In this document: in pieces, positions 10,193 to 51,831 of the stretch
How positions within the stretch are numbered: position 1 is the first letter of the stretch
Layout of the letters: each line of letters opens with the position of its first letter
NCBI GenBank assembly: GCA_038211045.1
Contig: JBBQWA010000001.1
Coordinates: 1-51,831 of the forward strand
Length of the DNA: 51,831 nt
Source of the DNA: Gemmatales bacterium
Lineage (GTDB): Bacteria > Planctomycetota > Planctomycetia > Gemmatales > Gemmataceae
Reading direction: 5' to 3'
The notes under the pieces: generated by a model
Told to the model about the DNA's origin: nothing
The model's input: the letters and a program-made list of their open reading frames with translations, nothing else
Databases searched by the model: none
Made by a program: the position numbers and the translations under genes

Positions 10193-11842
10193 TCACTCCG
10201 ATAGTGGAATCCGCATCACGAACTCCGTGCCCCGGCCCACGCCGCCGTTCACGATCACATCGCCGCCGTGTTCCCGCAGTGTCTTGCGGCTGACGGGCAA
10301 ACCCAATCCGGTGCCTTTGCCGCCTTTCGTACTCACGAACGGCTTGAAGATTTCTTCCCGCTTGCCCGGCGGGATGCCGGGGCCATTATCTTCCACGGCG
10401 ATCTCGGCGAACCCTTCGACGCGCCGCACGCTCACCGTCACGCGGGGAACTTCCTCATCTTCCACGGCGTCCACGGCGTTGCTCACGATGTTCAACAGTG
10501 CCCGGTGGATGCCATCGGCATCGCACGAAACCGGCCCGAGTTCGGGAAACGCCCGAAATTCCAGTACCACACCGGCCCCGGCGGCGCGGCCGCGAATCAC
10601 ATCCAACACCTCGTTCGCCAAGCCGTTCAAGTCGGTGCTCTCGAACGCCGGTTCGCGCTCCTTGGAGAAGCTGAGCATGTCGAGAATCAGATCGTCGATC
10701 TTCGCTTGGTTCTTTTCCACGAGCCGCCAGCCCTTGGTAAGCAACTCGGCATCGAGGGAAGGCAGGCCCATGCGAACCATGTCGGAACCGAAGCGCACAC
10801 CCTGCATAATGTTCTTGATGTGATGCGATAATGCCGCGATGGTTTGCCCGATGGCCGCGAGGCGCTCGGCTTGCAGCATGCCTTGGTAGTAGCGGTTTTC
10901 TTCGATTGCGAGCGCCGCTTGGTGAGCCACGGCCACGGCCAAGCGCAGGTGATCCTCGGTGAACTTCACCGGATCGCGGCCGCCGGTCGATTTCGCCGTG
11001 GGGGCTTGCGTATCGAGGAAGAGCACGCCGACGGTATCGTGTCGGCCGCGCATCGGTACGCAGATCACCTCGCGGATTTGATGCTTGGCGATGCTCACGC
11101 CGCCGCGGAAGCGTTCGTCCACCGCGGCATCCGAAACCAGAACGCCCTGCTTATGTTCCAACACATGTTCGACCACGGTTCGGCTGATGTTCAACTCCCC
11201 CTCGGCGTTCTTCCCCCGGCTGCGCATCGCTTTGGGGGTGAGTTCGCCCGTTTCCGGATCGAGCAGCACGGCGCAACCGTGATCCCCTTCGGTGCATTTC
11301 AACACGAGATCGACGATGCGAACGAGCAGCTCCTCGACATCCAGAATATCGCTCACCGCATTCGAGGCTTCGTACATCACGGCGAGATTGGCCAACCGCT
11401 GCCGCAGGTACTCCGTTCCGGCTTGTTCGGGGTTGGCGAGAAATCGGCTGCCCTCCTCGGCGGGAACGCTCCGCAAGATGGCCGTGGCGTAATTCGGATC
11501 GGATTGCAGTACAAAGCTCGCCGTATCAAGCGTGTTCGGCGGCAGGATGTTGGTATCGTCGGTGGCGAAGAGGAAGACGGTATCGCCGACTTGGATGCGA
11601 TCGCTGTTCTTGAGGATCGCGTTGGTAGCGATGCGATCGTTCAACAGCGTGCCGTTGCCGCTGCCGAGATCGGCGAGGGTGACGGAACCATCTTTGACGA
11701 CGAGTTCGCAGTGCTTGCGGGAAGCCCGCGCATCGTCAATGGAAATCGCATTCGTGGAATGCCTGCCGACAACGGTGGTACCCGGGGCGAGTTCGAATCG
11801 CTTGCCGATGCCCGGCCCGTGAAGGATCACCAATCGCGGCAT
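10193..11842 (-). CDS. Cytoplasmic FHA-GAF-histidine kinase (no adjacent response regulator)
   Basis: N-terminal FHA domain (VVGRHSTNAISIDDARASRKHCELVVKDGSVTLADLGSGNGTLLND). A GAF-like middle region follows. The H-box is LAAIGQTIAALSHHIKNIMQGV. The HATPase N/G boxes are NIVSNAVDAV and DNGPGIPPGKREEIFKPFVSTKGGKGTGLGL. Confidence 0.9.
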   Translation of the reverse strand: MPRLVILHGPGIGKRFELAPGTTVVGRHSTNAISIDDARASRKHCELVVKDGSVTLADLGSGNGTLLNDRIATNAILKNSDRIQVGDTVFLFATDDTNILPPNTLDTASFVLQSDPNYATAILRSVPAEEGSRFLANPEQAGTEYLRQRLANLAVMYEASNAVSDILDVEELLVRIVDLVLKCTEGDHGCAVLLDPETGELTPKAMRSRGKNAEGELNISRTVVEHVLEHKQGVLVSDAAVDERFRGGVSIAKHQIREVICVPMRGRHDTVGVLFLDTQAPTAKSTGGRDPVKFTEDHLRLAVAVAHQAALAIEENRYYQGMLQAERLAAIGQTIAALSHHIKNIMQGVRFGSDMVRMGLPSLDAELLTKGWRLVEKNQAKIDDLILDMLSFSKEREPAFESTDLNGLANEVLDVIRGRAAGAGVVLEFRAFPELGPVSCDADGIHRALLNIVSNAVDAVEDEEVPRVTVSVRRVEGFAEIAVEDNGPGIPPGKREEIFKPFVSTKGGKGTGLGLPVSRKTLREHGGDVIVNGGVGRGTEFVMRIPLSE

Positions 11843-11852
11843 GTGTTACCTA

Positions 11853-12488
11853 TCATGAAATCGCAATTCCCAGGTGTTGTCGGCGGCTCACCGAAAATCG
11901 ATTGTCGAGGTACTTCGCAATGGCAGCAACCAGAATTTGCTCGGCTTGCTCTTGGGAATACTGAAGTTCTTCGACCAACTCTTTTGCACGCCCGGTGATG
12001 GCATTGGAGATGAGTTCTTTGCACAATGCATAATCCTTGACCGATGCTCCGCTTTTTGCTGGCTTGTAGGTATGAACGGACTTCAGCATTTTCGCAATCA
12101 TCGCGTTGGTCGATAAATCCGAATCTCGGATGAAGTCGAGGAAAACCGCATTGAAATAGCCATCTCCGAACTCTCGAGTGGCTTTGCGAAGAGCGGTACG
12201 CAGTCCGAGCGAAAATCGCATCGTTTCTTGTTCAACGTTTGCCGCTCGAATCTTGAAACGGATCAAACCGTTGTTCAAGTCGTCGTCCCATGAGACCGTT
12301 TCCTGAAGGGTGGCCAACCCTTTTTGCTCGAAGGACAACCGCATCTCCGGAAGTGTGGTTCCGAATGTGGTTTCCGGATTGTAAATCTCGAGAACCGCAG
12401 TACTTCCCCGATCCAATTGTTGCTTCCACGGTCGCAAACGCGGATCCGTCAGATCTTGCTTTGAACCGAAAAATGCTTGAATGGACAT
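11853..12488 (-). CDS. Hypothetical protein, no domain recognised
   Basis: 211 aa from MSIQAFFGSK; an alternative ATG at 12536 would overlap the upstream gene by 26 nt. The sequence is non-repetitive and protein-like, with no TM segment. It is visibly more A/T-rich than its flanks. It lies 22 nt after the nucleosidase gene and 10 nt before the FHA-kinase gene. Confidence 0.6.
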   Translation of the reverse strand: MSIQAFFGSKQDLTDPRLRPWKQQLDRGSTAVLEIYNPETTFGTTLPEMRLSFEQKGLATLQETVSWDDDLNNGLIRFKIRAANVEQETMRFSLGLRTALRKATREFGDGYFNAVFLDFIRDSDLSTNAMIAKMLKSVHTYKPAKSGASVKDYALCKELISNAITGRAKELVEELQYSQEQAEQILVAAIAKYLDNRFSVSRRQHLGIAIS

Positions 12489-12510
12489 GCGGGTTCCTTT
12501 CGCAGATCTG

Positions 12511-13380
12511 TTATTCCGATTGCTCGTCCCAAGCATCCATCAATAGGGATCGCAAGACGAAGTCGGCCGCATTTCTGCAGGCAAGCAACCTGTACGCATC
12601 GGAATCGCCGCTCCGATTACCGTCCGCGAAATCCGAAATCCCTTTTACTATACACCAAACCGGTTCGCCGTGTGCGCTCGATGCGGCCAGCAACCCGACT
12701 CCTTCCATTTCCCCTCCAACGATTTCCTCGGAACCGCGTGGCACATGGCGAACCAACTCATCGCGAAACCGCATGCTGCCAATCAGGGCCGCTCCGGAAA
12801 GCACGGCGCCGAAATGCAACCCATAATCACCGCGGCACTTCAGCCCTATGCGCTTGAACAATCCGACGAGGCTTTCGCTGGCTTCTTCGTGAATCGCCCT
12901 GGAATAGTCGGTAAAATAACTTTCCCCGAACAATCGTCTCGAAACGAGGGATCGTTTAATCGCTTTCACTTCGCGTGTGTCGTAATGCACGATTGCCGTC
13001 GAAACCAAGACATCGCCCGGCGATTGCATTTCAGGGTCGATTCCGAAAGCCATCCCCAACTGCACGATCCCTTGTGCCCCCGTCGCCACCCTCAATCGCA
13101 TCCCGCGCGCCGCTGTTCCCAAGTAGCCCGACGCACCCATTACGATGCGACCTTGGATTCTCGGGGGGCTGAATGCGATCACGATTTCGTTTCCAACTCT
13201 GCCGAACCAAAGATATTCCTCACCGAATGGCGATACTTTCCGCTTGATCGTTTCGTACTTGATTCCGAGTGAGTCTGCAGCCGACTTCAAGCCTTGTTCT
13301 TCGGTGGGAGTTGCCAAGAACAGAATCAAGGAACAATCATTCTTGTTTTCGATCTTTGTGGACGAAGTATCTTGATCCAT
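12511..13380 (-). CDS. PNP_UDP_1-fold (MTAN/purine nucleoside phosphorylase-like) nucleosidase
   Basis: Only the last 289 codons of ORF-track entry 12511..14217 are credible, starting at the ATG at 13380 (MDQDTSSTKIENK). Family hallmarks are present: EIVGGEMEGVGL (the EME motif) and WCIVKGISDFADG (the (R/K)xISD catalytic-Asp motif). There is also an N-terminal beta-strand, SLILFLATPTEEQG. Confidence 0.8.
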   Translation of the reverse strand: MDQDTSSTKIENKNDCSLILFLATPTEEQGLKSAADSLGIKYETIKRKVSPFGEEYLWFGRVGNEIVIAFSPPRIQGRIVMGASGYLGTAARGMRLRVATGAQGIVQLGMAFGIDPEMQSPGDVLVSTAIVHYDTREVKAIKRSLVSRRLFGESYFTDYSRAIHEEASESLVGLFKRIGLKCRGDYGLHFGAVLSGAALIGSMRFRDELVRHVPRGSEEIVGGEMEGVGLLAASSAHGEPVWCIVKGISDFADGNRSGDSDAYRLLACRNAADFVLRSLLMDAWDEQSE

Positions 13381-13421: not shown

Positions 13422-14351
13422 CTACCTCTTCTTCTCCGGAAGGAACTGGTGCAATTCTAGCCCGTTGGGGCCGAGGTAATCGTCCAAGAGTTCGATTCGC
13501 CCGCGCACGGCGACGAGTGCCAGCAGTTTGCCGATCTCTTCGCGCCACACCGTGGCCAGCCAATCGGGGTTCCCGGCGCGTTGCCGTTGATACTGTTCGA
13601 GGCGGGCGAGGAAGGCCGCGGCTTCCGCGGTGGCCAGCGAAACCCGTTCGTTCCGATACGATTCGGCCTCGGCCGAGCGGCGGAACTTCGCGGTGTTCGC
13701 CTCGTTCGCTTGGCGCTCGGCTTCCTGCGATGCTTGGTTCGTTCGCGTTCGGATGGCGGTTTGAGCCTGATTCACCGCCTCGAAGGAATCGCGCACCTCC
13801 TCCGGGGCGGCCAAGGATTCCACGGCGATTCGTTCGACGGTGATGCCGAGATTCTGGCCGGCGATTCGCTCGGGTAATCGGTCGAAGATCCATTGCGTGA
13901 GCGCCGTGCGGCCGCCGAGGGCGCGATCGACCGTGTGCGAACCGAGCCATTCCGCGGCGAGGGCTTCCGTCTCGCGTCGCAGCGCCGGTTCCACTTGATC
14001 CTTGTGAACGACGTAGTTTTCCAGTGCGGCCTCTTCGATGGCGTATTCCACGATCAATCGCGTGTTCAACAGATTTTGATCGCCGGTGAGGAACTGCCCG
14101 GAAGGCGTGAACAGCGCCTCGAAGGATTCCTCTGGGAGTACGCCGACGGCGAGTTGCTTGACGATCCGCACCCGTACGCGGTCGATGCGGTCGATGCCCC
14201 AAGGCAAGCCGATCCATAGCCCCGGCCCCGGCTTGGCCACCACGCGGCCGAACCGCCGAACCACGGCTCGTTCCTCCGGCCCCACTTGGGCGATGCCCGT
14301 GAGCAGGTAGGCGGTGACCGCGATGAACAGCAGGTAGCGGAAGCGGATCAT
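13422..14351 (-). CDS. SPFH/band-7 membrane protein, HflK-like
   Basis: Start MIRFRYLLFIAVTAYLLTGIAQV (TM helix), followed by VGPEERAVVRRFGRVVAKPGPGLWIGLPWGIDRI and a long coiled-coil tail. The ATG overlaps the upstream stop (ATGA at 14348-14351). Confidence 0.85.
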   Translation of the reverse strand: MIRFRYLLFIAVTAYLLTGIAQVGPEERAVVRRFGRVVAKPGPGLWIGLPWGIDRIDRVRVRIVKQLAVGVLPEESFEALFTPSGQFLTGDQNLLNTRLIVEYAIEEAALENYVVHKDQVEPALRRETEALAAEWLGSHTVDRALGGRTALTQWIFDRLPERIAGQNLGITVERIAVESLAAPEEVRDSFEAVNQAQTAIRTRTNQASQEAERQANEANTAKFRRSAEAESYRNERVSLATAEAAAFLARLEQYQRQRAGNPDWLATVWREEIGKLLALVAVRGRIELLDDYLGPNGLELHQFLPEKKR

Positions 14352-15283
14352 TTCCCCGCCTTCGGAGGCTCTCGCAAAAGTTTGAACAAGTCGTGGTTCA
14401 GCGAGAGGAGCAGGATATCCCGGCTCTCGCTGAGCGCGGTTTGCATCGCCTTGAGCTTCTGGAGGAAGGCGTAGAATTCCGGGTCTTTCGCGTGGGCTTC
14501 GTTGCGGAGTTGATCGGCCGTCACGTCCGCTTTGCTTTCGATCAATTGTTTCTCGGCCTTCGCATCCACTTCGACCCGGCGGCGATCCTGTTCTGCCTTC
14601 GTGATGATCTCGGCGGCCTGCTTGCGGCCATCGTTCTCGTACTCCGCCACCTTGCGGCCCCGTTCGGAACGAATGCGCTCGTAGATACTGTTCCGCACCG
14701 CCTCGGGGTAACTTAATCGGCGGATGCGCAGCGTGACGATTTCCACCCCGTACTCGGCGAGCACTTTCGCTTTCAAATCGTCGCCGAGCAATTGTTGTTG
14801 GAGCTTCTCCGCGCGGGCATCCGCTTCCGCGATCGGCTTCACCGAAATGAGTTCCTCCAGCGTGAGGCCGCTGACCACCGCCGCGATGCGACCACCGATG
14901 CGCGGCGCGAGGATCCGTTTCACCTGATCCGGCGTACCCGCGGCTTTGATGAACCGATCGGCGGCGGCCGCGTTCGGGATGCGCCACGTGATGAACGCAT
15001 CCACGGTGAGCGTCTTATCGACGGTGCCGGTGGCGGGATCTTTGGTGAGGCTTTCGGTCGCGGGCAGGTCGAACGATTGCAAACGCCGGTCGATGCGCAG
15101 CACGTTATCGATGGGCCACGGCAGCTTGAAGTGCAACCCGGCTTCGGTGGCACCATCGTACTTGGCCACCGGTTCACCGAACCGCGTGACGAAGGCGAAC
15201 TCGGCGTAATCGACGCTGTAGCAGGCCGTGCGCGCCCACAGCAACCCGAGAATGGCAATCGGAACGTATGCGAATCGGTTCAA
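14348..15283 (-). CDS. SPFH/band-7 membrane protein, HflC-like
   Basis: The TM helix FAYVPIAILGLLWARTA is followed by SVDYAEFAFVTRFGEPVAKYDG...GLHFKLPWPIDNV. The only start that retains the TM helix is the TTG at 15283, which overlaps the upstream TGA (TTGA) and has GGAGA 7 nt upstream. Confidence 0.8.
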   Translation of the reverse strand: MNRFAYVPIAILGLLWARTACYSVDYAEFAFVTRFGEPVAKYDGATEAGLHFKLPWPIDNVLRIDRRLQSFDLPATESLTKDPATGTVDKTLTVDAFITWRIPNAAAADRFIKAAGTPDQVKRILAPRIGGRIAAVVSGLTLEELISVKPIAEADARAEKLQQQLLGDDLKAKVLAEYGVEIVTLRIRRLSYPEAVRNSIYERIRSERGRKVAEYENDGRKQAAEIITKAEQDRRRVEVDAKAEKQLIESKADVTADQLRNEAHAKDPEFYAFLQKLKAMQTALSESRDILLLSLNHDLFKLLREPPKAGK

Positions 15284-18200
15284 CGTGATTCTCCAGTTGG
15301 CACCGCGAGCGGTGGCACTCTCGGCATCAATTCCGGATCGAGCAAATACAGCTTGCGCGTGCCGGGGAGCTTGTCCGCATCGATCAAAATCTTGTCCCGG
15401 GATTTCAGCACGGCCGTGATGGCTTCCAAGCCCAAGCGGAACTCGGTCAACCGTCGGCGTTCGGCCAACATCGCGGTGCGTCGGGCGTCCGCTTCCGCCG
15501 ACGGGAGTTTCTTCAACCCGGCCTCCTCGGCGTCGCTCAATGTAGTGCGGGCCGCTTGCCAATGCAGGATACCATCGCGGGCCGCCGTGGCTTCCCGCAC
15601 CTTCTGATGGGCGTCCGCCTCGGCGGTGCGGATCGTGCGTAGGGCCACTTCCTGCGAACGGGTGCGGATGCGACTCGCCTCGGCCAGCGACTCGTTCACC
15701 AGTTTATCCCGTTTCTGAATCGCCTCCGCCACGGCATGGTACTCGGCCACCACCGATTGCGGCGGATGGAGATCGTGAATCGTGAGGCCTTCCAAACGAA
15801 TCCCCAAACCATCGGGGGCGGCTTCGCTCAACCGTTCGCCGAGCTTGGCCTCAGCCGCCCGCTCGAACTCGGCGCGGCCCGCCGCCAACAGCGTTTGGAA
15901 TGGCCGTGCGGCCACGAGTTCGCGCAACACCGATTCCGCGGCACTGCGGATTGTCGCATCCGTATCTTTGTTTCCCAAAAGAAACCGCCGCGGATCGCGC
16001 ACTGTGAATCGCACGGTGGCCAGAACTTCGAGCAAGTCGCCATCGCCGGTGAGCATCAAGCTCTCATCGGTGAGCCGGGTGCTCCCTTCGGAATGGGCGC
16101 TGCCCCACGTCGCGCCCGCTTCGCCCGATTTTTGGCCGGGCAGTTTCAACTTCTCTTGTTCGATTTTCGCAACGCGGAGTTCGTTCCACTTCTCTTCGGG
16201 AAGCACGCGGAAGCCGAGTTCGACCGTGCGAATCTCGGCGGGTTTCACACGGAGGATGCTTTCCACGGGCCACGGCCAGCGGTAGTGCAACCCCGGTGCG
16301 AGTTCGTTGCGAACGTCGCCGAAGCGTTGTACGATTCCCACTTCGGCCACTTCGATTTGTGCGAAGCCCGAAGCCAACCAAAGGAGTACCCCCGCCAACG
16401 CTCCCGCTCCGAGCACGCGTTGCCAATGGTGGCCCGCCGTGTGAAGCCAATCGTCGAGGTGGACGGTGTTCATCCAACGATCGAAATCGCGGTAGCGCCG
16501 TTTCAAGCCATCGGTGTGCGGAGAGCTGCGCTCGAAGCCCAGCAAACGCATCGAATTCAACAGCACCGCGAGGGAACCGATCTGGTGGTAGATCGCACCG
16601 GCGAGCGGGGCTTTCTCGAACCAACCCGGGCTACCGGCAAAAAGCGGCCAGAGGAATCCGGTGAGTAGCACGCCGATCAGATTGACGCCGAAGCCGAACC
16701 AAACGATGTTCTGGCGGATCACCTTGGTGGTTTCCCGGCTCAATCGCACCAACAGCGGCAGCGGTCGCAGCGGTTCGCCCATCATTACGATGTCGCCCGC
16801 TTCGGCGGCGATATCGGTTCCCGTGCCGATGGCGATTCCCACTCGCGCCGAGGCGAGTGCCGGAGCATCGTTCGCACCGTCGCCCACGAATGCGGCGTTG
16901 AGGTCGTTCAGCTTCGCGGCTTTCTCGGCGGGGAGCAACCCAGCGTGCAACTCCATTTCCGGGAGGTTCGCCGCAATGGCATTCACCACGCTCGCACGAT
17001 CGCCACTGAGCAACAAGATCGGGGTGATGCCCAACGATCGCAATTCCGAAAGGACTCCCGCCGCCTCGGGGCGGACGCGATCCCGCGTACCGATGGCTCC
17101 GACGATGGTTCGATTCTTCGCTACGAGGAGTGCCGTTTGCCCGAGCGCATCGAACTCGGCGATCCAGCCATCGACATCCGTGGAGATGGGAATGCCGCGT
17201 TCGATCATCAGCGTGCGGTTGCCGATGAGCACGGGCGAACCTTCGATGGTCGCCGCGAGGCCGCGGCCGGGGAATGCCTGAAATTCTGTGGCTTCCGGCA
17301 AGTTCACACCGCGTTGCTTCGCTCCGTGCAGAATCGCCGAGGCGAGGGGGTGTTCGCTTTTGGCTTCCGCCGCAGCCGCGATGCGCAGCAGTTCCTCCGC
17401 AGATGTTCCCGCAGCGGTTCGCATCTCGCCGAGTTCGATTTTCCCTTCGGTGAGGGTGCCGGTTTTATCGAAGGCGAATGCGGATACCTGAGACAATCGT
17501 TCGAGCGATGCACCGCTTTTGATGAGGATGCCGGTACCCGCCAATCGCCCCAACGCGGCGATCACCGCTGCGGGCGTGGCCAACACCAACGGGCAAGGGC
17601 AAGCGACGACCAGCACCGCCAACGTGGGGTACATCGCCACGCGGGCCATCGCGGCGAAGCCCAACTTCTTCGCATCCGGGGTGGCTCCCCATTGTTGAAA
17701 GCCGATGTTCATTAAAAAGGTGAAGAGAGCGAGCAGCAGCACCAATGGTAGGAAATACCGTGCAAGGCGATCCGCTTGCCGTTCGCCAACGGACTTCTCT
17801 CGGATCGCTTTCGCCGTGAGTTCGATCATCTGCCCGGCCACGGTACTCCGCTGGACTTGCCGGGCTTCCACCGTCAGCGAACCGTGCGGGATGAGGCTGC
17901 CCGCGAGCACGGCATCGCCGGGGGATTTCTCCACGGGTTGGCTTTCGCCCGTGAGCGAACTTGTATCCACGGCGGCCGTGCCTTCGATCACGATGCCATC
18001 GATGGGAATCTTTCCGCCGGGCTTGATGCGTACGAGGTCGCCGATCCGCACATCTTCGGTTAGGGTTCGAATTTCTTGCCCGTCGCGGAGTACCCAACAG
18101 CGCTGGGGGAAGAGCGTGTTCAGATTGACGAGCGAGCGTTGCGTGCGGTCGAAGGTGAAGGCTTCCAAGCATTCGCCCACAAGGCCGATCACCACCACTT

Positions 18201-18534
18201 CGGCCGCCACGAGTGGCTCGCCGAGGAGAATCGCGGCGATGCAAGCGACGGCGATGGCCAAATCGGCCCCGAGTTTTCCTTCGGACAGGTGTTCGAGCGA
18301 TCCGTAGAGGGCGCGGGCACCGCCGAGCACGGCGGCGAGGAGCGCGTAGCGCATGCCGAGGAGATCGCGCTTCTCCCAAGTCGGAGTCGGGGCGCCCTGA
18401 TCAGTGAGCCAACGTGCGAACAACGGCCAAAGGTCGGCGACGAGCAGGAACAGCAGTAGCCCGGTGAAAGAATAGAGGCCGAGGTTCGACCGCGTGCGGA
18501 AAGGGCTTTCTTGTGGCTCGAATGAACGGTGCAT
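15280..18534 (-). CDS. P1B-type (CPC) heavy-metal P-type ATPase fused in frame to a C-terminal SPFH/HflK-like domain
   Basis: 1084 aa from MHRSFEPQ. ATPase motifs: SLTGESQP, ACPCPLVLATP, FDKTGTLT, SEHPLASAI and VGDGANDAPALA. There is no HMA domain. From about 16422 downward comes an extra TM helix (VLGAGALAGVLLWLASGF), then IEVAEVGIVQRFGDVRNELAPGLHYRWPWPVESI (SPFH) and a coiled-coil tail. There is no stop codon between the two modules. Confidence 0.85.
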   Translation of the reverse strand: MHRSFEPQESPFRTRSNLGLYSFTGLLLFLLVADLWPLFARWLTDQGAPTPTWEKRDLLGMRYALLAAVLGGARALYGSLEHLSEGKLGADLAIAVACIAAILLGEPLVAAEVVVIGLVGECLEAFTFDRTQRSLVNLNTLFPQRCWVLRDGQEIRTLTEDVRIGDLVRIKPGGKIPIDGIVIEGTAAVDTSSLTGESQPVEKSPGDAVLAGSLIPHGSLTVEARQVQRSTVAGQMIELTAKAIREKSVGERQADRLARYFLPLVLLLALFTFLMNIGFQQWGATPDAKKLGFAAMARVAMYPTLAVLVVACPCPLVLATPAAVIAALGRLAGTGILIKSGASLERLSQVSAFAFDKTGTLTEGKIELGEMRTAAGTSAEELLRIAAAAEAKSEHPLASAILHGAKQRGVNLPEATEFQAFPGRGLAATIEGSPVLIGNRTLMIERGIPISTDVDGWIAEFDALGQTALLVAKNRTIVGAIGTRDRVRPEAAGVLSELRSLGITPILLLSGDRASVVNAIAANLPEMELHAGLLPAEKAAKLNDLNAAFVGDGANDAPALASARVGIAIGTGTDIAAEAGDIVMMGEPLRPLPLLVRLSRETTKVIRQNIVWFGFGVNLIGVLLTGFLWPLFAGSPGWFEKAPLAGAIYHQIGSLAVLLNSMRLLGFERSSPHTDGLKRRYRDFDRWMNTVHLDDWLHTAGHHWQRVLGAGALAGVLLWLASGFAQIEVAEVGIVQRFGDVRNELAPGLHYRWPWPVESILRVKPAEIRTVELGFRVLPEEKWNELRVAKIEQEKLKLPGQKSGEAGATWGSAHSEGSTRLTDESLMLTGDGDLLEVLATVRFTVRDPRRFLLGNKDTDATIRSAAESVLRELVAARPFQTLLAAGRAEFERAAEAKLGERLSEAAPDGLGIRLEGLTIHDLHPPQSVVAEYHAVAEAIQKRDKLVNESLAEASRIRTRSQEVALRTIRTAEADAHQKVREATAARDGILHWQAARTTLSDAEEAGLKKLPSAEADARRTAMLAERRRLTEFRLGLEAITAVLKSRDKILIDADKLPGTRKLYLLDPELMPRVPPLAVPTGESR

Positions 18535-18655
18535 GGGAGATTCCGGCACCGGGGGAAAAGAACCGAGGGGTGCCGTCAGGCTATCGGTTGAAGGGTGGGC
18601 GTCAAGCGAACGGGCGGGCGTGATATAATTGCGGTGCACCCACGGGGAACTGCCG

Positions 18656-19405
18656 ATGCCGATCCACAACTGGAAAAAAGTCGATGCGGGGATCTTCCAC
18701 GATTTCCATCAACGCTGGTGTATCACCATCGGCGATGCGTTGAATGCCGCATTGCCGCCGGATCATTACGCGTTGATCGAACAAAGCTTAGTGAAAGATG
18801 ACCGGGGCCGTTTCGGCCCGGATGTTCTCACGCTGCACACCGGCGGCGATGGATCAACTCCTTTTGAAGGTTCCGGCGGTACCGCATTGCTCGCCCCGGC
18901 GCCCAAATTGGCCAACGTTGTGTTTTCGGACGCCGAGTACTACCGCCGAAAGAAGAACGTGATCGCAATACGACACGTCAGCGACGACCGCATCGTGGCG
19001 TCGATCGAGTTGGTTTCGCCGGGGAACAAATCGGGGAACCGGGCGGTTGCCGATTTCGTGACGAAAGCGTGCGAGCTGTTGATCCGCGGCATCCATCTAA
19101 TGATCGTCGATCTGTTTCCACCCACGCCGCGAGTTCCGATGGGTATTCAAGCCGCGATTTGGATGGAACTGGAAGAGGAAGAGGCCGAGCCGTTGCCGGA
19201 GGGGAAGGATCGTGTGGCGGTGAGTTACGAGTGCCTTGATGGCGGTGTTCGCGGGTATGTGGAACCGATCGGCTTGGGGGAACCGCTGCCCGATATGCCG
19301 ATCTTCCTCCGGCCCGACGGCTGCGTGATGGTGCCGCTGGAAAAAACGTATTCCTCGGCTTTCTCGACGGTACCCGCACGGTGGCGCCGGGTGATCGAAG
19401 ATTGA
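18656..19405 (+). CDS. DUF4058-family protein
   Basis: The N-terminus is MPIHNWKKVDAGIFHDFHQRW. The core IELVSPGNKSG...GIHLMIVDLFPP resembles the IEILSPxNK...EIDLL signature of DUF4058. Confidence 0.7.
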   Translation: MPIHNWKKVDAGIFHDFHQRWCITIGDALNAALPPDHYALIEQSLVKDDRGRFGPDVLTLHTGGDGSTPFEGSGGTALLAPAPKLANVVFSDAEYYRRKKNVIAIRHVSDDRIVASIELVSPGNKSGNRAVADFVTKACELLIRGIHLMIVDLFPPTPRVPMGIQAAIWMELEEEEAEPLPEGKDRVAVSYECLDGGVRGYVEPIGLGEPLPDMPIFLRPDGCVMVPLEKTYSSAFSTVPARWRRVIED

Positions 19406-37949: not shown

Positions 37950-38300
37950 TCACGTCGTAAGCAGCTTCAACGCCTCTTCCTCGGAACGGACTGGAAGTTG
38001 CTTAGCTTGATAGTCTGGAGTGAAAACAAAACATCGCCCATTTGCCAAGTCGAATATGTTGTCGCCCAATACCAATGTGTTCGGTGTTCCGTCGAGATCC
38101 GGAATTCGGTATGGGATTAACGTCCCATCATTTTCATCAACTCGGAATTCACCATCTAGGGCCGGATGCTCCATTCCATTTTCAAGCTGGTTTGCACTGT
38201 GCTCGACATTTCCGAGATAGGTGCCTTTATGTAAGAGTATGACAATTTCGTCTCCAAGCTCCTTGCCCACTTTGAAGATCATAATGGCGCCGTTATCCAT
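37950..38300 (-). CDS. Small hypothetical protein (A/T-rich orphan)
   Basis: 116-aa ORF lying 19 nt upstream of comF. It is markedly A/T-richer than its surroundings. No motif recognised. Confidence 0.45.
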   Translation of the reverse strand: MDNGAIMIFKVGKELGDEIVILLHKGTYLGNVEHSANQLENGMEHPALDGEFRVDENDGTLIPYRIPDLDGTPNTLVLGDNIFDLANGRCFVFTPDYQAKQLPVRSEEEALKLLTT

Positions 38301-38476
38301 GTCATTTTCCCACTATGTATTGATTTTCTGCCCAACCTGCAATTCGTCTGTAAAGCAGTCTGCCTACAAGTCCTCTGCGGATTGAAGACAGCCTAGCCTA
38401 CGTTTTACCGCACAGCAATGGGCTGACGCTGCCGCTTTTGGCAAAAACACCCACCCTTACTGTCGATCATTATCTG

Positions 38477-40081
38477 TCACGCGCTCTTGCGCTCAGCGGG
38501 ATGGAGCTTCAGCCCCTGTGGGGCGGCGGGAAGTGAAACGGTGAACCGGGAAGGGTGCTTGGAAGTGGGGGCGAATCGCACATCGCCGCCGTGGGCACGC
38601 AGGGTGCGCCACGCGATCGGCAAACCGAGGCCGCGACCGCGGCCCGCTTCGCGACCCGAGAAGAATGGATCAAACAAGTGCGGCAGCGCTTCCGGGGCGG
38701 GGCCGGGGCCGCTGTCGGTAATCGCGAACTCGACGGCATCCCCGGCATCCCGCCCGGCGAGGTGAACCCAACCGCCCGGCCCGGCGGCTTCCAACGCATT
38801 GCGAACCACGTGGCCGAGTGCGATCCGTAATTGTTGGGCATCCCCGAGGATGGTGCCGGAGGCACCCGCAATCTCCAAGGTTGCGCCGCGGGCTTCCGCC
38901 TCGGGTTCCAACTCTTTGCGAACCGCATCTAGCAAAGAATCGGCCCGGAGCAATTCACGGTGCGGCGGTGTGGGCCGGGCGAACTGCCGGGTGCCGTGGA
39001 GAATCTCGTGGATGCGCTTGGTCTGGCGGAGGATCGTGGCGAGTTGGGTCTGGTATTCCGGATCGGGATCGAGATTCTTCAAAAGTTGAACATTCCCCGC
39101 GATCACGGCCAACGGGTTGTTGATCTCGTGGCTCGCCCCGGCGGCGAACTCGGCCAAGCTCGCCAACTTCGCATCGCGCAGGGCGAGTTCGAAATCGGAT
39201 CGGGAATTAGCCAAGGTTTGAACCAGTTCGTCGATGCGGTCTTCCGCCGCGAGTAATCGTTCCGCACCGCTCTTAGATAGGGCCTTCGCCGTCATCCGCA
39301 ATAATCGGGGCAACAGCATCGCATCGATGTTCGAGAATGCTGCGATATCGGGAACCGGTTCCTCCGCGAATGCGGCCCACTCCGAGACTTCGCCTTCGAA
39401 GGGCGAAGCGAGGCCGATCGGTTCGCCGTGGGCTTCGGCCAGTTGAATCGCCGCACGCACCACGCGGATCAATCCGACGGGTGCACCCAGCCTCACAGCA
39501 TCGTCGATGCCGAGTTCCGGATAGCCGATCGTGGCGATGAGCCATTCGGGCATTCGCCAACGTTGCAGCAATCGCCGGGTGAGTGCCGGGGAATCTTCCC
39601 CAATGTACCAAGGGAGGGGCGCCAACAGCGCGGCGGCGGAAGCGGCATCGGCGGAACAAAGATCCGAATGTTGGGCGATACGATGGGCAATGCGGGAGGC
39701 GTGAAGCCCCAAACGGTGAGCTGTGGGTTGTTGGGGAAGTTCGGTAGAATCGAGTTCCCAGAGTCGGGCCGCCGTTTCAAAGAGCCACGGCTGAGCGAAT
39801 GTGGGAGCATCCAACGCGAAGGAATCGGGCCGGGGTGTCGGCCGCGAAAAGCGGAGGATGTGGAGTACGAGTCCAGGATCGGCGAGAACCGTTCCGAGAT
39901 CGGGAGTGGAATCGGTGAGGGCGAGCAGAGCCGCCACCGAGGGCCGCAGCCAAGGTTTGGCGAGTACCGGCGTGGAACCGCGAACACCGGAATTCACCGC
40001 TTGCCCCTTTATTGTCATTGCGAAGGTTGAACCGCGATGCAAAATTGCGCATCGCGGTTCAGCAGGATCGCAAATCGGCAC
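38477..40081 (-). CDS. Sensor histidine kinase (cytoplasmic, unrecognised N-terminal sensor region)
   Basis: H-box EFAAGASHEINNPLAVIAGNVQLL. The HATPase region is HVVRNALEAAG...ITDSGPGP...PFFSGREAGRGRGLGL. The GTG at 40081 lies 6 nt after the regulator stop; an alternative ATG is at 40018. Confidence 0.85.
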   Translation of the reverse strand: MPICDPAEPRCAILHRGSTFAMTIKGQAVNSGVRGSTPVLAKPWLRPSVAALLALTDSTPDLGTVLADPGLVLHILRFSRPTPRPDSFALDAPTFAQPWLFETAARLWELDSTELPQQPTAHRLGLHASRIAHRIAQHSDLCSADAASAAALLAPLPWYIGEDSPALTRRLLQRWRMPEWLIATIGYPELGIDDAVRLGAPVGLIRVVRAAIQLAEAHGEPIGLASPFEGEVSEWAAFAEEPVPDIAAFSNIDAMLLPRLLRMTAKALSKSGAERLLAAEDRIDELVQTLANSRSDFELALRDAKLASLAEFAAGASHEINNPLAVIAGNVQLLKNLDPDPEYQTQLATILRQTKRIHEILHGTRQFARPTPPHRELLRADSLLDAVRKELEPEAEARGATLEIAGASGTILGDAQQLRIALGHVVRNALEAAGPGGWVHLAGRDAGDAVEFAITDSGPGPAPEALPHLFDPFFSGREAGRGRGLGLPIAWRTLRAHGGDVRFAPTSKHPSRFTVSLPAAPQGLKLHPAERKSA

Positions 40082-48954: not shown

Positions 48955-50150
48955 CGGATACCGTGGAAACCCCGGAAGAACAACCGGCCGCAACGCCGGC
49001 ACCGATGAAAACGTTGAACGAGCATGTCAAGGAGATCATCGCGGCGGCCCCCAAGAAGGTGGCTTTCAAGGCGTTGAAGACCGCTTTGAAAAACGCGGGC
49101 GTGCCCACGACGGGCAAGGCCCGCGTGACCGATGCGGAAATTGAAGTCGCACTCGAGGCCGAGGGTATTTTCCAACATCCGCCGAAGAAGGAAGGCGGCA
49201 AGCCGGAATACTGGCACGCGAGATTCAAGTCTGCCGAGGAAATAGCCGCCGAGAAGGCGGCCAAGATCGCCGAAGCCCAGGCGAAGAAGGAAGCGGATGC
49301 GATCGAGAAGAAACGCCTCGCAGACGAAGCCAAAGTAGCCAAGGCAGCCGAGGCGAAGGCAAAGAAGGAGGCTGAGAAGGCACAGAAGCTTGCGGAGGCT
49401 GAGGAAAAGAAACGCCTCGCCGATGGAGTGAAGGCGGAGAAGAAACGCCTCGCCGAGGAAGCGAAGTTGAAAAAGGTCGGGGAGAAGCTTCGGGTGAAGG
49501 TTGACGGACTTGGCGATGCTCCCGTTCCGCTTTCCAAGTTGGGCAAACCCACTGTTAAGGCTGGCCCGGAAGCCGCCGCCGAGTTCGAACGTGTGTTGAA
49601 GGATTTGGTTGACAAGAAAAGACTGTTTGAACACAAGGGCGGCAAGTACGGCAAGATTGCGCCTCCGCCGCCGCCAGTTCCCAAGCAATGGTTCGAAGCA
49701 ACCCCGGCCAAGAAAGCACTCGACGCACTCGCCAAGGCAGCGAAAAAAGTCTTGGACATTAACGGCGCAACAGCGGATTATGTGTTGGACTTCGTACGCC
49801 GTGCATTGGACGAACCTGCAAACCCTAATCCGGTGCTTATCGCGGAATTGGACTTGGAGACATTTGCCAAGCGGGTTCTGGCAATTGCCGCGACAATCGA
49901 AAACGACGCCAAGCCCTATCCGGGAAAGGTGTATATCGCGGCCGCTTGGCATGCCACGCAACGGGATGCAGTGTTTCCCAAAATGACAATTGATGAATTC
50001 AAACGTCAACTGGTGGAAGCGAACCGGCAGCAACTGCTCGAATTGAGCCAAGCCACGGAAGTCCAAGACATGGACAAAAAACTACTCGAAGAATCCAAGA
50101 CTTTGCAGAACCAAACGACCTTCCAATTTCTCCGCACCGATGGAGTGTAA
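48951..50150 (+). CDS. Lys/Glu/Ala-rich coiled-coil repeat protein, function unknown
   Basis: The ATG overlaps the upstream stop (ATGA at 48951-48954). The central region AAEKAAKIAEAQAKKEADAIEKKRLADEAKVAKAAEAKAKKEAEKAQKLAEAEEKKRLADGVKAEKKRLAEEAKLKK is flanked by ordinary globular-looking N- and C-terminal parts. Confidence 0.75.
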   Translation: MTDTVETPEEQPAATPAPMKTLNEHVKEIIAAAPKKVAFKALKTALKNAGVPTTGKARVTDAEIEVALEAEGIFQHPPKKEGGKPEYWHARFKSAEEIAAEKAAKIAEAQAKKEADAIEKKRLADEAKVAKAAEAKAKKEAEKAQKLAEAEEKKRLADGVKAEKKRLAEEAKLKKVGEKLRVKVDGLGDAPVPLSKLGKPTVKAGPEAAAEFERVLKDLVDKKRLFEHKGGKYGKIAPPPPPVPKQWFEATPAKKALDALAKAAKKVLDINGATADYVLDFVRRALDEPANPNPVLIAELDLETFAKRVLAIAATIENDAKPYPGKVYIAAAWHATQRDAVFPKMTIDEFKRQLVEANRQQLLELSQATEVQDMDKKLLEESKTLQNQTTFQFLRTDGV

Positions 50151-50153
50151 GTC

Positions 50154-51831
50154 ATGGTTTCCAGCGTGAAAGAGGAGGATTCAACGAAAATGGATCACAT
50201 CGTCGATGCACGGTTGAAAGCGTTTCTCTCCCCGAACTCCCCGGAGATTTTCCACAGTGTGGCGACGCCGACCGCCATGTGGCGGCCGGATCCCTTCGAC
50301 ATCGATTCGATCCACTCCAAGGCGCGCGAGGCTTTCGCAAAGGTGTTAGCACGGGCGGGGCGTACGCACGCTCCTCCTTCGGGATCCGTGCTGGTGCTGC
50401 TAGGGGATGCGGGAAGTGGAAAGACACACCTCATGCGGGCATTCCGCAACCAGACACACACCTCAGGGAATGGCTATTGTGGCTACATGCAGATGACGAC
50501 CGAAACGGGCAGTTATTCCCGGTACATGCTCAACAATCTAATCTCCGATTTGGAGAAACCCCACACACCGGAAAGTACACGTACGAGTTTGAATCGATTA
50601 TCGTCATCGTTGCTGGAGAAAGTACCGGGTTTGAGCCAAAAAGATCGGGAACAATTTCGCGACGGCCCGGGGGAGGTTTCCGAGTTGGCCGATGAATATG
50701 TTGATCGCCTGAAAGAGTTGCCGGAATTTGGAACCTGCGACTTGTACTTGCTCCGGATTCTCATGCACCTAGAACGCAATGATAACAAAGTTCGTAGTCG
50801 TGCTCTCATGTGGCTGCGTTGCTTGGAAATGAAGGCGACCGACCGGCATTGGATCGGCGAAGCGGTGGCCAGAACTGACGATGCAGATCCCGATCGAACG
50901 ATACGGCATCTCGCCGAAATCATGCGGGCCGCGAGTGGATCGCCATTGGTATTGCTCATCGATCAACTCGAAGACATGAGCAAACAGGATCGGCCGACGG
51001 AGCGATTCCGCAAGATTGTGGATGCGATCACCGCATTGGCCGATCAGAATTCGAACGTCGTCGTGGTGATGGCCTGCCTAGAAGATTACTTCCGCTTGAA
51101 TGAAAAAGAGATTGGAACCGCCAAGCAACAACGCTTGATGAACGATCCACCGCCCGTCATCATGCGAGCGAGTCGCTCGGTGGCAGATATTCGGGCGATG
51201 GCAGTTAACCGTTTGCAATACCTTTACGACGAAGCGGGGGTCGAAGGCAATTTCAAGGATACGCTGTACCCTTTCTCCGAAAAAGACATTGCGGAACTCG
51301 CCGGGATTTCACCCCGGGAAGTATTGTTGAATTTCTTGCGGCACCATCAGCGCTGTATTTCGGAAGGCTGTTGGATCCAACCCTGGGTTGGGAAGAATCC
51401 ACCAATTATAAATGCCGATTCGCTCACTCCCATTTGGAATGACTTCTTCAACGGCTTCACCTTTTCCCCGGATGAACTCGACGAAGAAAATGAATATGCT
51501 GCGGCCATTGCCTCGGCGGTGCGGAACATCGCGCCGGAACTCCCCGAAGGTAACCACTTCGGCACACCGCAATCGGATGGCCGATATCTCGAACTCGAGC
51601 TTCAACAACCCGATGATGGCATCGCCAAGCTCCTCGTGGCGGTCTGCAATAAAGGCGGCCAAGGTCGCGGTTTGCTAAACGAGTTGATCGACGTGGAGAA
51701 GCGTGCCGGAGACATTCCGGTTTCCATTGTTCGGACGATCAACTTCCCGCGAACCGGCCAAGCGTTGGAAAAGCTCGGCAAAATGCTGAAGCAACAAGGC
51801 CGTTCCGTGGTCATTCCCGATTCCGATTGGC
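50154..51831 (+). CDS. P-loop NTPase (AAA/STAND-like), C-terminus cut by right window edge
   Basis: My own translation from the ATG at 50154, 3 nt after the upstream stop: MVSSVKEEDSTKMDHIVDARLKAF... Walker A is VLVLLGDAGSGKTHLMRAF (nt ~50403-50426). Walker B is SPLVLLIDQLEDM. A sensor-like strand NVVVVMACLEDYF follows. The frame is open to the last base, so it is absent from the ORF track. Confidence 0.8.
   Translation, partial: MVSSVKEEDSTKMDHIVDARLKAFLSPNSPEIFHSVATPTAMWRPDPFDIDSIHSKAREAFAKVLARAGRTHAPPSGSVLVLLGDAGSGKTHLMRAFRNQTHTSGNGYCGYMQMTTETGSYSRYMLNNLISDLEKPHTPESTRTSLNRLSSSLLEKVPGLSQKDREQFRDGPGEVSELADEYVDRLKELPEFGTCDLYLLRILMHLERNDNKVRSRALMWLRCLEMKATDRHWIGEAVARTDDADPDRTIRHLAEIMRAASGSPLVLLIDQLEDMSKQDRPTERFRKIVDAITALADQNSNVVVVMACLEDYFRLNEKEIGTAKQQRLMNDPPPVIMRASRSVADIRAMAVNRLQYLYDEAGVEGNFKDTLYPFSEKDIAELAGISPREVLLNFLRHHQRCISEGCWIQPWVGKNPPIINADSLTPIWNDFFNGFTFSPDELDEENEYAAAIASAVRNIAPELPEGNHFGTPQSDGRYLELELQQPDDGIAKLLVAVCNKGGQGRGLLNELIDVEKRAGDIPVSIVRTINFPRTGQALEKLGKMLKQQGRSVVIPDSDW

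Follow-up and report, generated by a model that had tools for sequence, protein, structure and literature searches.

The stretch of DNA analysed here (the window, 51,831 nucleotides) covers positions 1 to 51,831 of the forward strand of contig JBBQWA010000001.1, from the assembly GCA_038211045.1 of a Gemmatales bacterium (Planctomycetota). The subject of this analysis is a pair of adjacent genes lying at 11,853-13,380 of the window, the first of which encodes a nucleosidase with the fold of purine nucleoside phosphorylases (PNP) and methylthioadenosine/S-adenosylhomocysteine (MTA/SAH) nucleosidases (MTAN), while the second encodes a protein of 211 amino acids, called here the partner. An initial annotation, made from the sequence alone, had placed the two genes at these positions with a spacing of 22 nt and had suggested that they might form a nucleotide-depleting effector module. 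Positions and spacing were confirmed on the minus strand, and the features of the pair are as follows.

13380..12511, minus strand: PNP gene, 289 amino acids plus stop codon; stand-alone PNP/MTAN-fold nucleosidase, putative effector or toxin.
13297..13302, minus strand: codons of Glu27 and Glu28, at the junction between strand 1 and helix 1 according to the secondary structure of the AlphaFold2 (AF2) model.
12700..12717, minus strand: GGEMEG motif (residues 222-227), the ribose-binding Met-Glu element, invariant in the family.
12619..12645, minus strand: KGISDFADG motif (residues 246-254), at least 90% conserved, with the codon of the presumed catalytic Asp250 at 12631-12633.
12489..12510, minus strand: spacer of 22 nt between the PNP and partner genes, with a Shine-Dalgarno-like AAAGGA before the ATG of the partner, as read from the sequence.
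12488..11853, minus strand: partner gene, 211 amino acids plus stop codon; putative cognate regulator (inhibitor or sensor).

The start codon of the PNP gene is backed by protein P0055 (99% identical, 289 aa) and by the N-termini of the family alignment, and that of the partner gene by protein P0001 (100% identical, 211 aa) and by alignment N-termini that also agree. The pair had been described as lower in G+C than its surroundings, and this held: the G+C content of its 1528 nt is 0.522 versus 0.596 for the window, which is the lowest value among all windows of 1528 nt and 3.5 standard deviations under the mean. At third codon positions, G+C is 0.61 in the PNP gene and 0.55 in the partner gene, and 0.63-0.77 in five neighbouring genes. 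The same tendency was repeated in the homologous loci described below, the pair being under its flanks in G+C in 33 of 40 of them (mean, 3.9 points), with the largest drop, of 13 points, in Singulisphaera acidiphila. Neither flanking repeats nor an adjoining tRNA, nor a convincing promoter or terminator, were found in the window around the pair.

The Pfam search of the 289-aa protein gave PNP_UDP_1 (PF01048) at residues 19-272 (E=7.9e-11, 42.2 bits versus a gathering cut-off of 25.1) and no other domain, in agreement with the previous description of a stand-alone fold that is not fused to a receiver, a sensing domain or an NTPase. Its AF2 model, with 38 homologues in the alignment, reached a mean predicted local distance difference test score (pLDDT) of 85, and Foldseek placed it closest to solved MTA/SAH nucleosidases of the PDB (E ~1e-14, template-modelling score 0.74-0.79, identity 16-22%). 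Both hallmark catalytic motifs could be aligned with Escherichia coli MtnN. Residues E224-M225-E226 correspond to E172-M173-E174 of MtnN and to the EMEG of PDB MTANs, and S249-D250 correspond to S196-D197, the KGISDFADG motif matching RAISDVAD there. In MtnN, Asp197 is the general acid that protonates N7 and Glu12 is the glutamate that activates water. E27 does not vary among the 38 homologues and E28 is kept in at least 90% of them, and Glu27 may be the counterpart of MtnN Glu12, in a region that hhalign left unaligned. Such machinery would be expected of a hydrolytic N-ribosyl nucleosidase. Apart from the catalytic domain, the protein has only about 17 variable N-terminal residues; compared with MtnN, it has extra N-terminal residues, an insertion at approximately 138-165 and a long C-terminal helix.

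Comparison with housekeeping enzymes gave low scores. The PNP obtained 36.8 bits with the NCBIfam MtnN equivalog NF004079 versus a cut-off of 169, the best solved structure (an MTAN) reached 27.5 bits on the family profile, and hhalign of the family profile against E. coli MtnN gave a probability of 19%. The alignment of the same profile with PNP domains fused to NACHT/WD40/HEAT proteins had a probability of 100% (E=4e-42, 249 columns). In addition, the distant relatives recovered in a motif-seeded genome scan were PNP domains within large proteins, with 62-117 bits on the family hidden Markov model (HMM), and those checked combine a NACHT or AAA NTPase with WD40, HEAT or pentapeptide repeats in an NLR/Avs-like arrangement. 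The PADLOC model of the CBASS PN-superfamily effector matched 36 of 38 family members, and PDC-M60C matched 37 of 38. Furthermore, locus L126 carries, besides the pair, a separate canonical purine nucleoside phosphorylase located 6 kb off, between dnaE and ileS, which matches PDB 4m1e with E=7e-100 and scores -1.5 bits on the family HMM. Judged by these profile comparisons, the PNP of the window is not a housekeeping MTAN/PNP enzyme.

A distinct PNP clade is formed by ATP-nucleosidase effectors that act in CBASS (Cap17), Detocs (DtcC), Avs/NLR-like, short prokaryotic Argonaute (pAgo) and DRT8 systems, and the PNP domain of DtcC alone is highly toxic in E. coli (10.1101/2023.01.24.525353). By way of proxies, namely the NLR-fused PNP domains and the PADLOC models, the nucleosidase of the window is tentatively placed in this "immune" Cap17/DtcC branch. 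A supplementary table of Rousset et al. 2023, which is presumed to list the clade, contains a gene of Enhygromyxa salina DSM 15201, which could not be matched to our locus L034.

The partner had been regarded as an unrecognisable orphan. It is indeed unrecognisable, but it is not an orphan: the first homologue search returned 54 relatives with 40-55% identity, nearly all of 205-215 aa, and a profile search over 1.84 billion representatives yielded 372 partner clusters (approximately 372 at 50% identity). The family displays the conserved motifs WDDDLN, REFGDGYFN and YLDERFSVSxRR. W67 and R91 do not vary in the 77 diverse members that were compared, and P16, L75, E88, G108, L171, L175, Y177, D195, R197 and F198 are conserved in at least 90%. 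The AF2 model of the partner (pLDDT 87, predicted template-modelling score 0.83) begins with a helix and further consists of a sheet of three strands and some eight helices packed in a bundle. Foldseek of this model against PDB and BFVD found nothing at E<=1e-3, and the family profile had no match among PDB sequences. No family of Pfam, NCBIfam, PHROG or PADLOC was assigned to the partner of the window, no recurrent family of Pfam or PADLOC to the 77 homologues, and none of these homologues contains a helix-turn-helix (HTH), ribbon-helix-helix or AbrB-type Pfam domain. The PADLOC assignment "gop" was discarded, as it was a lone match with E=0.034 that was not repeated in other homologues. All these results indicate that the partner represents a family without known relatives or fold in the libraries searched.

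A few partner homologues are longer, with 120-340 additional residues at the C-terminus of a core that stays constant at about 205 aa. These extensions of the long partners gave no match with Pfam, PADLOC or PDB. The extension of the partner encoded at locus L119 (541 aa in total, 340 of them in the extension) opens with VIFDTNAY and closes with FITGDREI, and by eye it is PIN-like (DTN, TGD), an assignment that is unconfirmed.

The association between the two genes was studied by using the PNP alignment to search GTDB species, each represented by one genome, those loci with more than about 190 bits on the family profile being taken as family-type (n=51). The partner lies directly downstream of the PNP in all of them except L031 and L054, the latter being a fragment. 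A metagenome scan with the partner gave 29 loci, in which a PNP was located upstream wherever upstream DNA was present, except in the related L091 and L092. Altogether, the pair has been seen in about a hundred loci, most of them planctomycete. The partner is rare and patchy and, apart from L091 and L092, essentially always sits beside a family PNP; it does not behave as a core gene. A PNP also precedes the longest partners and those that are most distant, and because of this no swapping of effectors is seen.

The intergenic gap in 31 intact pairs ranges from -17 to +37 nt, most commonly 22-25 nt, with a single outlier of -125 nt (L052), and GGAG-type sites are usual ahead of the ATG of the partner. 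Pairwise identities of PNP and partner are strongly correlated (r=0.90, 36 intact pairs), and the partner diverges faster, with a mean pairwise identity of 38.6% versus 48.5% for the PNP. In the closest pair of loci, the ratio of nonsynonymous to synonymous substitution rates (dN/dS) was 0.14 in the PNP gene and 0.22 in the partner gene, as against 0.027 in the flanking DUF1552 gene. Purifying selection acts on both members of the pair, yet they evolve several-fold faster than their neighbour. When the ORFs flanking the pair in 55 loci were clustered, no third conserved gene was found. The pair is obligate, co-evolving and autonomous.

Several irregular loci deserve description. L031 (6010-7142) is the only clear case of a PNP without partner: the PNP is apparently intact (GGEMEG, KGISDFADE) and the partner is cut to an N-terminal remnant. 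This remnant is ended by a convergent gene whose 541-aa product is methyltransferase-like, from its translation alone. In L091 (244-723 and 1706-2368) the partner is an orphan, and the region upstream of it has, instead of a PNP, an ORF that was judged by eye to be a remnant of an IS200/RAYT-type transposase. Downstream of the intact pair, L110 (5652-5912, minus strand) and L111 (3497-3757, minus strand) present an inverted fragment of a second partner (profile positions 151-211), which suggests a past duplication or rearrangement. An apparent fusion of PNP and partner in L040 was rejected: the real C-terminus of the PNP lies in another frame, so that the fusion comes from a frameshift in a metagenome-assembled genome (MAG) obtained by nanopore sequencing.

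Most of the approximately 50 loci of the genome scan belong to Planctomycetota (Pirellulales, Gemmatales, Isosphaerales, Planctomycetales and Phycisphaerae). The other hosts are Myxococcota, including the isolate Enhygromyxa salina, Lentisphaeria, a Capsulimonadaceae MAG (Armatimonadota) and a MAG labelled as Alcaligenaceae. Four genomes, among them that of the isolate Aquisphaera insulae, contain two loci each; the PNPs of the duplicate copies share 46-64% identity in three of these genomes, and the second copy of the fourth is degraded. The presence of several divergent copies in one genome, together with the toxin-first order and the faster evolution of the small downstream gene, could also be accounted for by an interbacterial toxin followed by its immunity protein, in the order of polymorphic toxins. 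However, no domain for secretion or delivery (PAAR, Rhs, LXG or other) was detected with Pfam, and no secretion-system genes recur in the flanks. We consider this explanation very improbable.

The genes flanking the pair vary from lineage to lineage, and synteny was kept only within two sub-lineages. In the first one, the order DUF1592-type gene, PNP, partner and DUF1552 gene is found in L010, L013 and L101. In L025, L103 and L117 the pair is likewise followed by this DUF1552 gene, and the upstream side is a contig end or was unchecked. The DUF1552 proteins of the loci that share this arrangement are 72-98% identical. DUF1592-type and DUF1552 genes are usually adjacent in Planctomycetota; in L010 (3274-8723) the pair is wedged, with gaps of 0-4 nt, between the DUF1592/DUF1588-type (PSD) gene and the DUF1552 gene. 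In the second sub-lineage, a radical-SAM gene is located upstream of the pair in L041, L044, L047 and L055. As synteny has been kept in both sub-lineages, the module can be a long-term resident and not merely a hopping element. Together with the low scores obtained with MtnN, this restricted synteny agrees with the earlier expectation that the enzyme would not be a housekeeping nucleosidase with synteny throughout the phylum.

Mobile genetic elements were also searched. Pattern scans of IMG/VR with both alignments detected no pair. INPHARED, in which only the PNP was searched, gave no PNP match, and PLSDB, also searched only with the PNP, gave one distant C-terminal PNP domain, which belongs to a 516-aa protein encoded by a Rhizobium etli plasmid. 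This protein (L118, 4960-6510; plasmid pA of R. etli CIAT 652) has an effector-type PNP domain at its C-terminus with 101 bits on the family HMM, and three co-directional hypothetical genes come after it. Similar PNP-domain proteins of about 550-620 aa were found in Mesorhizobium (L061, L075), and proteins of the L118 type may constitute another uncharacterised PNP-effector system. In addition, distant PNP domains with 61-84 bits on the family HMM are present in ORFs of around 600 codons of three IMG/VR contigs classed as viral (L086, L087 and L088).

Concerning genes of biological conflict, locus L119 (1-10762) is a defence island with the order Mrr, HsdM, AbiEi, AbiEii, PNP, partner of 541 aa, HsdS and HsdR, and its PNP has 245 bits on the family HMM. 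An integrase adjoins L123, and a gene for an IrrE-like peptidase lies near L122. Genes for PemK, PIN, YafQ or MazE were present at 1-10 kb in five of nine annotated planctomycete contexts (L001, L004, L124, L125 and L126). No salvage or biosynthetic genes were associated with the pair in about 60 contexts, and none for salvage lie around it in the window, where the initial annotation had already noted the absence of a purine- or methionine-salvage context.

These contexts bear on the idea of a specialised metabolic pair, composed of a nucleosidase whose substrate would be some unusual nucleoside or nucleotide, and of a second protein, either an accessory enzyme or a binding protein, for its product or substrate. 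The MTAN-like catalytic machinery would suit such a role, as would the purifying selection on both genes, the constant length of the partner with its near-invariant polar residues (W67, E88, R91, D195 and R197), the stable synteny inside ordinary operons in two sub-lineages and the failure to find the pair on phages or plasmids. However, pathway genes are missing from the contexts studied and there is no conserved third gene, the pair has a sparse, patchy distribution and may be present in several divergent copies in one genome, its G+C is consistently under that of its flanks and pseudogenes are frequent. Moreover, the PNP is kin to effector-type and not to housekeeping domains, and one homologue lies in a defence island. 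For these reasons a metabolic role seems to us improbable.

Taken together, the data make it somewhat probable that the pair is a self-contained toxin/regulator module, likely of the abortive-infection kind, which would deplete adenine nucleotides. From the comparisons described we infer the substrate, the physical interaction between the two proteins, the direction of regulation and the anti-phage role. In the proposed mechanism, the two genes would be co-transcribed and the PNP would be a free-standing immune-type nucleosidase, to which the partner would bind and which it would gate. In the uninfected cell the partner would keep the nucleosidase inactive. Infection or stress would then remove or alter the partner and free the enzyme, which would cut the N-glycosidic bond of ATP, dATP or a related adenine nucleotide, and the draining of energy and of the nucleotide pool would halt phage replication. 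That the partner binds and controls the enzyme would be the simplest reading, since an isolated immune-type PNP domain is toxic, the window protein is predicted to be that domain and the partner is its sole constant companion.

With respect to the direction of control, we lean towards an inhibitor over an activator. The toxin-first order points to inhibition, as does the persistence of orphan partners without PNP in L091 and L092. Disruption points the same way, the PNP alone being disrupted in about 10 loci versus about 3 for the partner alone. In L047, L048 and L053, which belong to one syntenic lineage, the PNP is interrupted in the same reading frame, and these interruptions were read as in-frame stops. 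On the other side, the apparently intact PNP beside a truncated partner in L031 and the variable C-terminal extensions on the constant partner core point to a sensor or activator. It is possible, and we propose it only tentatively, that the pair is a minimal immune system in which a protein of about 210 aa with a new fold senses infection directly and gates a free-standing Cap17-like ATP nucleosidase. Equally tentative is the idea that, in such a system, the variable C-terminal extensions of some relatives belong to the sensor.

Many of the features that suggest an inhibitor would also be expected of a plain chromosomal toxin-antitoxin (TA) pair that serves addiction or persistence, with the PNP as toxin, a proteinaceous antitoxin and no dedicated anti-phage role. 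The two genes are co-directional, tightly spaced and inherited as a unit, partners occur without PNP, disruption affects the PNP more often and the partner evolves faster; other TA genes are found nearby, and the isolated PNP domain of DtcC is toxic. However, the partner has no recognisable DNA-binding domain and L031 retains an intact PNP with a truncated partner. In addition, the domains most closely related to the PNP are effectors within immune-type STAND proteins, and L119 lies within an island of restriction-modification and AbiE genes. A TA pair overlaps heavily with the toxin/regulator module that we prefer, from which it differs in biological role only, and we regard it as unlikely, although not negligible.

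Several observations weigh against the proposal of an abortive-infection module. First of all, the asymmetry of disruption is not significant (binomial p ~0.13) and many of the loci come from nanopore MAGs. L031 keeps an apparently intact PNP although its partner is truncated, which speaks against an antitoxin that is indispensable. The fixed length of the partner and its near-invariant polar residues also suit an enzyme or a ligand-binding protein. The putative membership of the PNP in the immune clade is deduced from proxies, namely the NLR-fused PNP domains and the PADLOC models. As for context, the neighbours of the pair in the window (SPFH genes and a histidine kinase gene) include no defence gene, the only unmistakable defence island is that of L119, which is a distant homologue, and most of the planctomycete contexts consist of ordinary genes. 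Finally, the module is not demonstrably mobile, because its synteny is stable in two sub-lineages and no pair was found in the phage and plasmid records searched.

In the window, the gene located upstream of the pair on the same strand is of the SPFH type, with its stop codon at 13422, and a gene encoding an FHA-GAF histidine kinase (11842..10193, minus strand) begins 10 nt past the stop codon of the partner. As read from its translation, the kinase (10193-11842, minus strand) has an FHA domain at its N-terminus and a GAF-like region in its centre. Its closeness to the partner on the same strand, and the fact that Detocs joins a kinase to a PNP effector, raised the possibility of a Detocs-like arrangement in which this kinase controls the nucleosidase. 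Against this, the PNP carries no receiver domain, and a homologue of the kinase was found in one other locus only (L057, about 2 kb off), none being conserved in the 55 loci with clustered flanks. Such an arrangement is extremely improbable. More generally, a functional link of the pair to the kinase or to the SPFH genes of the window was rejected, given the lack of a receiver domain and of conservation of these neighbours.

Other features of the window were recorded. Upstream, at 15280-18669 (minus strand), a 1129-aa ORF appears, from its translation, to encode a P-type ATPase of the heavy-metal type whose C-terminal third is SPFH/band-7-like, and such a fusion of ATPase and SPFH is unusual. 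After it there are two more SPFH (HflK/HflC-like) genes, at 14348-15562 and at 13422-~14350 (both minus strand), also identified from translations. The 500-nt bin of lowest G+C in the window is 38001-38500 (0.478). At 37950-38300 (minus strand), an ORF of 116 aa lies between a gene for a ComF-like phosphoribosyltransferase and another histidine kinase gene, and it may be another small acquired gene. The G+C content also drops towards the end of the window, to 0.50-0.55 in roughly its last 2 kb (49500-51831).

PNP-fold ATP nucleosidases are a recently recognised kind of immune effector in bacteria, fungi and animals, and all those known so far are domains that are either fused to elaborate sensors or signalled by them. 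The effector of the pair would be of a known kind, and what has no counterpart in PADLOC-DB v2 or in the literature searched is the family of its partner, the fold of this family and the fixed arrangement of two genes. If the proposed function is right, no simpler control module would be known for a PNP effector domain that is common to bacteria and to NLR-type proteins of fungi and animals, and the pair would offer a minimal and tractable system for learning how such an effector is restrained and then released. It would also add a defence/TA family whose centre lies in Planctomycetota, where the immune repertoire has been poorly charted. Both structure determination and the discovery of triggers would have a clean target in the partner family.

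The initial annotation could not match the two-gene architecture to any described system, and we found no match for it either, in PADLOC-DB v2 or in the literature searched, where no system made of a stand-alone PNP and a partner is described. Comparison with the closest known systems shows what is shared and what differs. Cap17-like immune PNPs have the same PNP_UDP_1/MTAN-like fold with the Glu-Met-Glu and Ser-Asp elements. However, their PNP either shares a polypeptide with a sensor or receiver (SAVED-type, STAND NTPase or REC) or is partnered with pAgo, whereas that of the pair is free-standing, has 270-300 aa and is constantly accompanied only by a protein of 205-215 aa. CBASS requires a CD-NTase and a cyclic-nucleotide sensor domain, and the pair has a single-domain PNP and no conserved third gene. 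Detocs (DtcA kinase, DtcB buffer and DtcC, a REC-PNP protein) likewise has a PNP effector in a small operon, but the pair has neither a receiver domain nor DtcB, and no kinase is conserved. MtnN/Pfs enzymes are the nearest PDB structures and their catalytic motifs align, although their salvage context is absent from the pair. The best PADLOC match is PDC-M60C, in which the C-terminal ~110 residues of the PNP align with positions 290-397 of a 407-residue model (E=2e-8). Only the C-terminal half of the PNP fold is matched, PDC-M60C is longer and belongs to a three-gene candidate system, and the partner did not match the PDC-M60 models.

Toxin-first defence modules of the TA type, such as DarTG, consist of an enzyme toxin and an adjacent neutraliser that follows it, and they are chromosomal and patchy. 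The pair resembles them in this organisation but differs in the predicted chemistry of the toxin, and its partner has no macrodomain, HTH or known antitoxin fold. Compared with type II TA systems, the partner lacks the DNA-binding domain of the antitoxins, while the adjacency of the two genes and their joint inheritance are shared.

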